From contig CAVUAK010000001.1 of assembly GCA_963739455.1 (NCBI GenBank), forward strand, positions 1,056,001 to 1,120,000: a DNA stretch of 64,000 nucleotides, given 5' to 3'. How positions within the stretch are numbered: position 1 is the stretch's first letter; every line of letters starts with the position of its first letter. Origin of the DNA: an uncultured Gemmatimonadales bacterium. Lineage in GTDB: Bacteria > Gemmatimonadota > Gemmatimonadetes > Gemmatimonadales > GWC2-71-9. The notes below the pieces were generated by a model. The model was not told the origin of the DNA. It made no database searches and saw nothing but the letters and a program-made list of their open reading frames with translations. Positions 2,416-52,555 of this stretch are shown here, piece by piece. The translations under genes and the position numbers were made by a program.

Positions 2416-2490
2416 GGCAAGGACGGCTATATTTGCCCGGCTTGATGGCGCCCCTGCAGGTTGGCAATTCCCCTGGAGCTGGACTCAGAC

Positions 2491-3099
2491 ATGACGCGTG
2501 TGTTGATCACTGCGGGTGCACTGGCAATGCTGTGGACTCCGTCGCTGCGGGCGCAGGCCGCCGCGCAGCCGCCGAAGGACGCCGCCGCGGGCCTCCCGCA
2601 GGTATACAAGCCCGAGCAACTGAGTGCCGTGCAGAAGCAGGCGCGCGATGCGGTCTCGTCGCTGCGCGACTCCGTGGCTGCCGCCAGCGGCGCCCTCGCC
2701 GCGTTGAGCGTCGATGCGCCGACCACGTCGCTCCAGGTCATGGAGAGCAGGGCGGCCACCGCGGTCGACCGCTGCAATTCCACCGAGCGTCAGCGCGCAC
2801 AGTCCATGAAGGCGCTCTCCACGGCGCCGCTCACCGAGCCGGGTGAACTCAAGGCCCAGAAGCAGATGCTCAAGGAGATGGACAAGCTCAAGAAGCCGCT
2901 GGACCAGTGCCTGGCGACGTACCAGCCGCTGGCGCAGCGTGGAAAGGGCCAGGAGGTGCGCGACTATGGCCCCTCACGCGCGAAGCCCATCCTGGCCGGC
3001 TTCCAGCAGTTCGACCAGTCGATCAAGCCGTTCGCGACTGCCATGAAGATCCAGTTCCGCCCGATAATCAATAATGCGGGAAAGTCACCTCTCGATTGA
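2491..3099 (+). CDS. Hypothetical secreted helical protein
   Basis: Signal peptide MTRVLITAGALAMLWTPSLRAQA; typical codon usage; two Cys. Confidence 0.7.
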   Translation: MTRVLITAGALAMLWTPSLRAQAAAQPPKDAAAGLPQVYKPEQLSAVQKQARDAVSSLRDSVAAASGALAALSVDAPTTSLQVMESRAATAVDRCNSTERQRAQSMKALSTAPLTEPGELKAQKQMLKEMDKLKKPLDQCLATYQPLAQRGKGQEVRDYGPSRAKPILAGFQQFDQSIKPFATAMKIQFRPIINNAGKSPLD

Positions 3100-3210
3100 G
3101 TGGACAACGTGGACACTCTTGGCGGGCTGGTGTAAACATCGTCCACACGCTGTGGACGGACTGGGCAGGTGCCGTGCTGGTTGAGGCTTAGCTCTCCACA
3201 AAGTGAACAT
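3099..3210. promoter_or_regulatory. Cluster of DnaA-box-like 9-mers
   Basis: AGTGGACAA 3099-3107, CGTGGACAC 3108-3116, TCGTCCACA 3139-3147, TGTGGACGG 3151-3159, CTCTCCACA 3192-3200; each has 1-2 mismatches to TTGTCCACA. Confidence 0.45.
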
Positions 3211-3244
3211 GCAAATGTGGTGTAAGCCGAACAAAATCAGGCAC

Positions 3245-3272
3245 TTGCGGCGTTTCGGGGATACCATAGCTT
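3245..3272 (+). promoter_or_regulatory. Sigma70-like promoter overlapped by an IHF-consensus site
   Basis: TTGCGG (3245-3250)-16 nt-TAGCTT (3267-3272); AATCAGGCACTTG (3235-3247) matches WATCARNNNNTTR. Confidence 0.55.
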
Positions 3273-3277
3273 AGGGT

Positions 3278-3700
3278 CACGCGCCGATGACTCGAGCGCC
3301 GGAACCTGGTTTCGGAAGCGAGTTGTCGGTGGGTTCGAGCGGCGCGTCGGAGGAGGTTGCCAGAGCTCACAAGGCTTGGCGGCCGATGATTCCGGTGATC
3401 ACTCCGGCTCGAACAGGTGGAGCCAGTCGCGCGCTCCATCCGCCCCGATGTGGCGCCTCGGGATGCAGTGCGAAGGGTTGGTCCGCGACCCGATCCGACT
3501 CGCAGCGCTCGTGTTGGTGAACCAGGCAGGATGCGCATCCAGTCTGGGGATGGAAGCCGAAGCCCCGCGCGAGCCCTACAGTGACGCATCAGTCACCGAT
3601 GGCCGACGGGAGAAGAACGGCGGCGGCAACGCTCCGACTTCGGGTAATCAGCATGGGGAACGGCCGACAGGGCTCCGGGCTCTGCGGCCGTTTCCGTTTT
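3278..3700 (+). ncRNA. Candidate large structured non-coding RNA (~420 nt), family unknown
   Basis: Bounded by a promoter and a terminator; no credible ORF; many nested helices with G-U pairs (3283-3294/3319-3330, 3333-3340/3407-3414, 3416-3423/3433-3440, 3507-3513/3568-3574). Confidence 0.6.
3656..3700 (+). terminator. Intrinsic terminator
   Basis: GGAACGGCCG...CGGCCGTTTCC long stem followed by GTTTT. Confidence 0.65.
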
Positions 3701-3716
3701 CGTTAGCTTGAACGGC

Positions 3717-4097
3717 ATGGCCCTGCATGTGCTCGTCGTATCACCGGATGAGGCGCGCCGCAGTACGCTGGCGGCGGCGTTGCTCGCCGCCGGTCATCGT
3801 GCGGTGGGGGTGGAGAGCGGCGCCGTCGGCGCCGCCGCACTGACGGAGCCGGGCATCGATGCGGTGCTCGTGGACTTGATCACCCCCGAGCTGGATGGCG
3901 CCGCATTGCGGACGCTCCTCGATCCGGCCACACCGGCCCGGCCCGATTCCCTCGAGGACGCCGAACGGCGGCACATCGCGCTGGTCCTGGATCACACCGG
4001 CGGCAACAAGAAGCAGGCCGCCCTTCTTCTCGGCATTTCGCGGTCGACCCTGCTGCACAAGGTGCGCAAGTACCGCATCATCACGCCGCGCTCCTGA
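3717..4097 (+). CDS. Truncated receiver-like domain fused to a Fis-type HTH
   Basis: N-terminal HVLVV...IDAVLVDLITPELDG (REC-like); C-terminal SLEDAERRHIALVLDHTGGNKKQAALLLGISRSTLLHKVRKY (HTH_8). Confidence 0.8.
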   Translation: MALHVLVVSPDEARRSTLAAALLAAGHRAVGVESGAVGAAALTEPGIDAVLVDLITPELDGAALRTLLDPATPARPDSLEDAERRHIALVLDHTGGNKKQAALLLGISRSTLLHKVRKYRIITPRS

Positions 4098-4512
4098 CGA
4101 CCCGCACCCGCCCCAGGCGCGATACGAAGATCTCGACCCGCGCCGCTCCCAGCGTCACCACATAGCGCGCATTGGCCGCACCCATGGCAAGCCCGTTGGG
4201 AGCGTAGCTCGTCTCCGAGGGTTCGCTCATGAGCGCCGCGCCGTCCATGGCCGGTCCCGGCGCGCTCCATCGCACTGAGTCTCCCACAAGTACGACCAGC
4301 GAATCCGTGGTAAGCACGACCCGGGCGACGCGCTGCTCATTGAGCGCCACGGCTCGGGCCCGGCCGTGCGCAAGCGCGATGCGCGAGGCGGCCTGTCCCG
4401 CGTGAATGCCGTCGAGTGCCCCCGACATGCGCGGCAACGCGAGCCCGAGCAGGATGCCCAGCAGAGCCAGAACGATCGCGAGTTCGATGAGTGTGTGTCC
4501 CTGGCGGCGCAT
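4081..4512 (-). CDS. Prepilin-type protein (GspH/FimT-like pseudopilin)
   Basis: MRRQG|HTLIELAIVLALLG class III signal; C-terminal VSRLGRVR. Confidence 0.8.
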   Translation of the reverse strand: MRRQGHTLIELAIVLALLGILLGLALPRMSGALDGIHAGQAASRIALAHGRARAVALNEQRVARVVLTTDSLVVLVGDSVRWSAPGPAMDGAALMSEPSETSYAPNGLAMGAANARYVVTLGAARVEIFVSRLGRVRVVRSAA

Positions 4513-27085: not shown

Positions 27086-27156
<71 letters not shown>

Positions 27157-27379
27157 CTCTCTCCTACCGTCCGCTAAATAGCCACCACGTCACAACTTGC
27201 ACCGCGTCACTGCCCAAACGGGCGGGACGGGGTTACTATTATGGTCGGGAGCCGTTGCGCAGAACTACACTTCTGACGCAGCGGCTCCCGGTCGTTTATG
27301 GGGTCGCCACCCAACCTCGAGTACACGCGAGTTCAACTCGGTGTCTTGCATGGGTGAGTTCACTTCACGCAAGGCAGCC

Positions 27380-52198: not shown

Positions 52199-52555
52199 GC
52201 CCGATAATTTCCACCTTCGGCACCGAGCTATCTCTTGCGCAGGGGGCGCTCGAGACCTCTAGTTTTGCGGCCCCGGATCACTCCGGGTGTGCTCTTATCG
52301 GGCGGTCAGTGGGTTGACCCTATCACCGTCAAGTTTGACGGCACCTCGAACCTACGGGCTGCGGGATATGGGGTCAACGACGGCAAAATTGACGATCATA
52401 AATATCTTGTTGGGAAACTACTTAGACATGTTTACTGCCCAGAATATTGACACCGCTTTTGGCGCCTAGCAGTATTACATGTCGAAGCAGCGCAACAGAA
52501 TTCCCAAATTTCTGCTCTCATTGGTGGACACCACAGCCGCTTTTGGAGTTATCCT

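Follow-up and report, generated by a model that had tools for sequence, protein, structure and literature searches.

Large structured RNAs are rare in bacteria, and those with known functions do fundamental jobs, according to PMC9723947. The 64,000-nucleotide (nt) window analysed here, from an uncultured Gemmatimonadales bacterium (contig CAVUAK010000001.1, positions 1,056,001 to 1,120,000), contains at 3278-3700 on the + strand a gene for a non-coding RNA that stands alone and has its own promoter and terminator, both conserved. OLE RNA of the Bacillota (Rfam RF01071) resembles it: each is a large orphan RNA encoded on the chromosome by a gene of its own, and each has a kink-turn, a switching palindromic loop and a linked protein gene. 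The OLE kink-turn is bound by the L7Ae-like protein YbxF/OapC (PMC9723947), and OLE RNA is further marked by membrane localisation together with OapA/OapB. OLE RNA differs in length (~600 nt against ~420 nt) and in phylum, and the double-pseudoknot core is a property of the RNA described here. The linked protein also contrasts with that of OLE, being without a known fold and not found in the source genome. The OLE model was absent from the cmscan results of the region and of 15 homologous loci, and a genome-wide search with it, run without a working control, was empty.

The raiA motif RNA (RF03072; Bacillota and Actinomycetota) is likewise an abundant stand-alone RNA, with a two-pseudoknot core and a 6-bp first pseudoknot (PK1) on a hairpin loop. 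ROOL and GOLLD RNAs, which we take to be Rfam RF03087 and RF02032, are also ornate multi-helix RNAs with kissing loops and of unknown function. Both are encoded by phages or prophages, near tRNA islands (PMC12286853). The RNA here differs in being chromosomal and near-universal in its clade, and it matched neither model; no tRNA gene lies within 23 kb of it in the window, where a tRNA-Cys gene was found at 27086-27157 (+). With 6S/Ms1 RNA, RNase P RNA, transfer-messenger RNA (tmRNA) and signal recognition particle (SRP) RNA it shares a housekeeping-type promoter and a single-locus, vertically inherited gene. An initial annotation of the stretch had described the RNA as being in the manner of OLE, ROOL and GOLLD. 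This likeness of kind holds; membership was not found, and the chromosomal location sets the RNA apart from ROOL and GOLLD.

Rfam 15 at the gathering threshold gave no match over 3278-3700, and the cmscan matches accepted up to E 10 for the region, or up to E 1 for the 15 homologous loci, were all at chance level; the Rfam check proposed in the initial annotation thus returned no family. RNase P RNA, tmRNA and SRP RNA, from which that annotation had already separated the RNA, are present as full-length copies elsewhere in the source genome, and none of their models matched the region. No description of the RNA was found in the literature naming the clade, a coverage that leaves most subscription papers and supplementary motif catalogues outside. 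The RNA is a further class of large structured bacterial RNA with its own fold, matched by no catalogued family. It is separately transcribed, non-coding, highly structured and near-universal in two Gemmatimonadales families, as the following evidence shows.

The gene is preceded by a sigma-70-type promoter (3245-3272, +) with a -35 box TTGCGG at 3245, a 16-nt spacer and a -10 box TAGCTT at 3267. A pattern of this type stood at the matching distance in 79 of 92 loci, although a consensus scanner reported 0 promoters and 0 terminators over 2800-4200. The same -10 hexamer is found upstream of the RNase P gene in the source genome. An A-rich element at 3223-3244 (+), putatively a UP-element-like or factor site, adjoins the -35 box; it is conserved in the homologue alignment and persists even at loci whose RNA shrank to the core. 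At the other end lies an intrinsic terminator hairpin with a U-run (3657-3701, +; -28.5 kcal/mol). Of 185 distinct copies, 149 had a hairpin and U-run behind them, and in 119 cases its position fell into a single 20-nt bin; among shuffles the count was 34 of 185; the sequence of the terminator is variable and its form is retained. Promoter and terminator, both noticed in the initial annotation, were accepted because the comparison across loci settles what the single-sequence scan and folding leave weak. G-U cells far outnumbered A-C cells in the homologue alignment (144 versus 17), which identifies the RNA strand as +.

The two open reading frames (ORFs) across the region, 3287-3520 and 3376-3711, had no Pfam match, and their open in-frame span was kept in 3/19 and 2/19 sequences, respectively, self included. 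No conserved small ORF with a ribosome-binding site occurred among these 19 homologous sequences, so the coding signal sought by the initial annotation was found for neither frame. Folding of the single sequence modestly beat chance (z -2.38, with 3/100 shuffles equal or better; minus strand z -1.06), which is also the direction the initial annotation had expected.

Expression is indicated by metatranscriptomes. The RNA stretch is contained in 20 of 24 listed sequencing runs, 10 of them recorded as RNA. Contigs of four RNA runs from four studies were compared with 2900-4100; the runs were selected for containing the RNA stretch and no DNA run was compared, and for the former reason missing flank contigs were not counted as evidence. 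In all four runs the contigs (3287-3658, 372 nt with 0 differences; 3292-3664; 3294-3643; 3308-3661) were 350-372 nt long, had 0-7 differences and were confined to the predicted unit. These near-identical contigs stop cleanly, on the 5' side slightly inward of the predicted start and on the 3' side where the terminator hairpin begins. The initial annotation had expected a species of ~420 nt, which remains the length of the primary transcript with its start inferred. Confinement to the unit agrees with it, but the contigs cover only 3287-3664, a weak hint at a stable species of ~380 nt with its 3' end perhaps near 3658-3664 and not 3700. One contig (run X2, depth 150; one run of four) jumps from 3390 to 3292, as a circular fragment or an artefact of reverse transcription or assembly would.

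A consensus structure was drawn by hand from the homologue alignments. Over 22 homologues, 95.2% of 1790 cells were paired and 42 of 82 pairs showed two-sided changes; none of 500 shuffles reached this level, and slid controls were 36-42% paired. The homologues and covariation foreseen in the initial annotation were thus found in abundance. The 5' hairpin P1 (3283-3330, +) is variable in sequence, with 77% of cells paired in 19 homologues, and is missing from short variants such as L024 and L075. It is followed by the P2 arm (3333-3414, +), which carries a kink-turn with tandem GA at 3353-54 and 3388-89 and a 3-nt bulge at 3385-87. P2 was 94% paired and the helices flanking the kink-turn 96% and 97%, with two-sided changes at most pairs. 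The GA..GA pattern, a loose one searched without a control, occurred in 123 of 132 long copies.

The conserved core (3416-3509, +) comprises ~95 nt with the helices P3 (3416-23/3433-40), P4 (3441-48/3458-65) and P5 (3469-81/3490-3504) and two pseudoknots. In 47 diverse cores, 18 of which were retrieved by a pattern fixing the pseudoknot centres but not the covarying PK1 end pair, 96.7% of cells were paired and 25 of 39 pairs had two-sided changes. P3 runs for 8 bp without a break (97.9% paired). PK1 (3426-31/3484-89) is formed by the kissing loops of P3 and P5 and was 97.5% paired. Its end pair is G-C in 26 cores and A-U in 15, with about six independent joint changes on the tree; three of its six pairs were invariant. 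The second pseudoknot, PK2 (3452-56/3505-09), joins the P4 loop to the strand right after P5, with 99.6% pairing and two-sided changes in 3/5 pairs. P3 plus P4 (16 bp) and P5 (12 bp with an internal loop) are similar in length, which makes an intramolecular clamp closed at both ends plausible. In L064, L066, L071 and L076 the kissing loop is eroded while the promoter and upstream element are intact; these are possibly decaying or relaxed variants.

The 3' domain (3510-3655, +) contains helices at 3522-47 and 3557-62/3638-43, a branched arm at 3564-3610 and a tetraloop hairpin at 3619-35, and it is closed by a long-range helix, 3510-18/3647-55, in which 9/9 pairs change on both sides. All motifs and helices named in the initial annotation lie at the positions it gave, including 3283-94/3319-30 with its three G-U pairs and 3333-40/3407-14; its inventory lacked PK1, PK2 and the long-range helix. 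One of its helices, 3507-13/3568-74, was not conserved: it formed 7/7 pairs in 2 of 19 sequences and 1-5 of 7 in the other 17. The conserved pairings that replace it are PK2 and the long-range helix.

Natural deletions have removed the inner kink-turn arm (L008), the entire 5' part (L024, L075) or most of the 3' domain (L022, L028, L030). The 3' domain is a simple hairpin in L022 and L030 and mostly gone in several genera, and some genera retain little beyond the core. The core was present in every aligned copy while the arms get deleted. Of its columns 18 are invariant, and most of these are paired. Conserved unpaired stretches reach at most ~9 nt, the longest being rich in purines, and the best complement to rRNA or other housekeeping RNAs was 9-10 nt, so the RNA has no antisense seed. 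No antisense target in the source genome rose above chance level (best match E 0.068).

BLAST found the RNA in 34 of 36 genomes of the source family (f1), 6/12 of a second family (f3) and 0/12 of a third (f2). A covariance model of the core and 3' domain found it in 71/72 genomes of f1, 2/2 of f3, 0/31 of f2 and 0/45 from nine other families of the phylum, and in an order-level sample in 66/67, 15/16 and 0/67 genomes of f1, f3 and f2, respectively. A core-only model gave a like distribution, with one match in 40 f2 genomes at E 0.3, the chance level. In the covariance searches each genome contributes a limited set of scored candidates, and absence here means not found in the genomes searched. 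The tallies include the unpublished genomes G025, G098 and G133, on which alone no claim rests. A pattern scan of 185,579 genomes gave at least 119 matches, of which 80 were titled, all Gemmatimonadota, and 39 had no title; among the matches listed, four titled ones were labelled Gemmatimonadaceae by their depositors. Viral contigs gave 0 matches with the full pattern and five with a loose pattern, all ≤13.4 bits, and phage and plasmid records gave no credible match. Several genera have second or third copies at unrelated loci. Several of these extra copies (L084-L093, L078-L081) lack the 5' hairpin and kink-turn, yet carry the UGAUC loop, the promoter and the upstream sites described below.

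Within the P2 arm lies a palindromic loop, GUGAUCAC (3395-3402, +), through which two copies might dimerise by a symmetric kissing contact. Of 189 distinct copies, 85 passed a filter that demanded complementarity at the outer three positions and set no condition on the central two; two of the 85 were mis-picks and were dropped. The loop centre was self-complementary in 80 of the 83 remaining copies (AU 64, GU 9, GC 6, UA 1) and not in three, and the tetranucleotides were GAUC, GGUC, AGCU, GGCU, GGCC and GUAC. Self-complementary bases that are adjacent cannot pair inside one chain. PMC12286853 drew on a switch of this kind, from GGCC to GAUC or AGCU, to support bridge B3 between the two molecules of the OLE dimer.

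Upstream of the promoter lies an array of DnaA-box-like 9-mers (3099-3200, strand not assigned), three of them with ≤2 mismatches and an intact core. Scored against a DnaA-box consensus, the 170 nt before the -35 box had a mean of 2.5 such sites per locus, compared with 0.07 in shuffled and 0.03 in downstream sequence, and 77 of 79 loci had at least one. The source locus is one of only six 170-nt segments of its genome with at least three sites, and a perfect DnaA box stands 5' of dnaA itself. Binding of DnaA to the upstream sites is predicted from these patterns. The RNA locus lies inside a flat GC-skew minimum of C1 (0.97-1.10 Mb). The upstream DNA as oriC was not supported; oriC itself was not identified in the source genome. 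Three near-perfect DnaA boxes at C1:1460531 lie upstream of a sigma-70-like gene and are not oriC.

We speculate that the RNA may be an abundant scaffold RNA acting in trans, and we hold this as a tentative preference built on analogy with the structural or scaffold roles proposed for OLE and raiA RNA. The rigid core would be the working module and would dock a cellular protein or complex encoded away from the locus. Protein-binding and stabilising contacts would come from the kink-turn arm and from A-rich 3' junctions, and the GAUC palindrome may join two copies into a homodimer in many lineages. Transcription would follow replication or growth state through the DnaA-box-like sites, and a 203-aa protein often encoded beside the RNA would be at most an accessory partner. 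The points counted for a scaffold are the RNA's own promoter and terminator, the varying and often convergent genes downstream, the RNA contigs, the core kept as arms go, the switching of the palindrome, the lack of an antisense seed and the high identity of the RNA in genomes where the 203-aa protein was not found.

Several points weigh against this proposal. The analysis found no target or partner for the RNA, and a scaffold role is suggested by analogy. The compact double pseudoknot fits a ribozyme or an aptamer equally well. The contigs carry no information on the ends, strand or level of the RNA. As to the dimer, 104 of the 189 copies are not of the 8-mer type and have an ordinary hairpin, a shorter palindrome or no arm, and most of the 64 AU centres are shared by descent. 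As to DnaA, two mismatches to the consensus were allowed and related loci are not independent.

The core may instead be a ribozyme or a trans-acting sensor of a metabolite or ion, with the arms merely stabilising it, which we consider unlikely, though the strongest of the alternatives. The compact two-pseudoknot core of ~95 nt suffices alone in several genera, and three of the six PK1 pairs never vary, a constraint that exceeds what pairing alone imposes. However, few unpaired bases are invariant and available for a pocket, since most of the 18 invariant columns are paired, and no Rfam ribozyme or riboswitch matched. The contigs run unbroken through the core in 4/4 runs, a weak hint that efficient self-cleavage does not occur.

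The 203-aa protein raises the question of an obligate two-part ribonucleoprotein or a toxin-antitoxin pair, which seems rather improbable. Its gene adjoins the RNA in 51 of 92 loci. In a 150-genome sample it occurred in the same 73 genomes as the RNA, the source genome aside, and both are missing in G032 and G058; linkage alone could, however, produce such a shared profile. The protein (for example L063:2305-2913, -) has a visible internal repeat and was not found outside the two families with the RNA. Its structure model has a predicted local distance difference test score (pLDDT) of 89.6, but no Foldseek match at E ≤ 0.001 was obtained, the best VIA Z was 5.4, and there was no Pfam, PDB-sequence or Atlas lead; this shows no match, which is short of a new fold. 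Of 12 genomes of the source genus, 8 gave no match to the protein (the source genome and 7 of 11 others). A profile search, run without a positive control, did not find it in 5/5 tested genomes, three of them 95-99% complete. The usual site of its gene, after the LVIVD gene, holds <80 bp in the source genome.

In three genomes where the 203-aa protein was not found, the RNA is 96-98% identical to that of the source, compared with 50-64% at neighbouring third codon positions. In a fourth the values are 85% and 57%, with 4 two-sided and 13 one-sided changes against 2 broken pairs. An RNA identity above that of third codon positions, together with the kept pairs, means that the RNA is under selection without the protein. 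The RNA of the source genome is intact, expressed and under purifying selection, which argues against an obligate pair.

Two other protein partners were considered and rejected. An L7Ae-family protein as a specific partner is also present in families without the RNA (29/31 genomes of f2), and the sole L7Ae-family gene is that of the nusA-infB operon. A YhaM-like nuclease with OB and HD domains occurs in families without the RNA too and was not found in the source genome. In 32 loci the gene of such an exoribonuclease (L064:1149-2138, +, and relatives) is convergent on the RNA; the enzyme could trim the 3' end.

A role like that of 6S or Ms1 RNA, in binding RNA polymerase, appears highly improbable. 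It is favoured by the lack of an Rfam 6S match in the source genome and in 39 of 40 genomes of the order. A 6S-like RNA missed by Rfam was nevertheless found in the source genome at C1:1844523-1844699, upstream of queD/folE, and matched the weak 6S hit of G057 in a shared gene context (E 3e-5). The idea that the RNA replaces 6S was dropped: the zapA-rny locus contains no 6S, but this 6S-like gene stands elsewhere in the genome. 6S RNA is a ~190-nt rod with a central bubble; the RNA here is branched and pseudoknotted and has no such long rod or bubble, and the initial annotation had noted that it is much longer than 6S. The 6S-like RNA (also at L225:1500-1665) lies between a GNAT gene and queD/folE with its own promoter and terminator, and is syntenic in f1 and f2.

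That the RNA is a far-diverged, enlarged raiA motif RNA has a very slim probability. Both combine variable peripheral stems with a compact core of two pseudoknots, one of them a 6-bp pairing on a hairpin loop (PMC12968392). The RNA here is, however, twice as long. The closing stem P1 of raiA, which pairs the 5' and 3' ends with GU and GGU bulges and is its most conserved feature, is absent; the 5' end here is a local, dispensable hairpin, and the 3' end pairs with 3510-18. The raiA P3 is bent by an asymmetric A-rich internal loop, whereas P3 here is unbroken, and PK1 here is a loop-loop contact whose partner lies in a hairpin loop and not in a single-stranded linker. RF03072 had no match in the region or the 15 loci, and in one dedicated search no control passed the family cut-off. 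The raiA RNA is monomeric (PMC12286853).

Two genes flank the RNA in the source genome. A 212-aa hypothetical protein (2461-3099, +) without a Pfam match is found at only some loci and is not part of the RNA. Downstream, 7 nt past the terminator, a same-strand gene (3708-4097, +) encodes a 129-aa Fis-family helix-turn-helix protein (Pfam HTH_8, E 4e-14) that lacks an ATPase domain and whose receiver domain is degenerate; it is likewise not part of the RNA. A cis-acting leader of this gene, a coding region or a DNA element such as oriC, which the closeness of the gene, the GC-skew minimum and the DnaA-box-like sites might suggest, is largely refuted: the gene 3' of the RNA differs between genomes, is often convergent and is not consistently a same-strand gene of related function, the ORFs are broken in most homologues, the G-U versus A-C asymmetry and the pseudoknots indicate RNA, and the upstream sites accompany second copies of the RNA at unrelated loci as well. 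Elsewhere in the window, a c-di-GMP-I riboswitch was found at 52216-52303 (-) with 47.5 bits.

The initial reading of the locus as a large, independently transcribed non-coding RNA is supported. The RNA is near-universal in two families of an order common in soil and sediment, and copies that lack the 5' arm, the 3' domain or the linked protein form a natural deletion series. This series yields a 95-nt minimal core, a full form of ~380 nt and a specific dimer prediction, which can be tested in vitro without a cultured host. A bolder reading is unlikely: in it, the core would be a ribozyme or a ligand-sensing fold of a new kind, the RNA carrying it would be a homodimer, and DnaA would control its transcription. 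If true, the RNA would provide this clade with an RNA-based link between chromosome replication and a cellular activity, one without a described counterpart.
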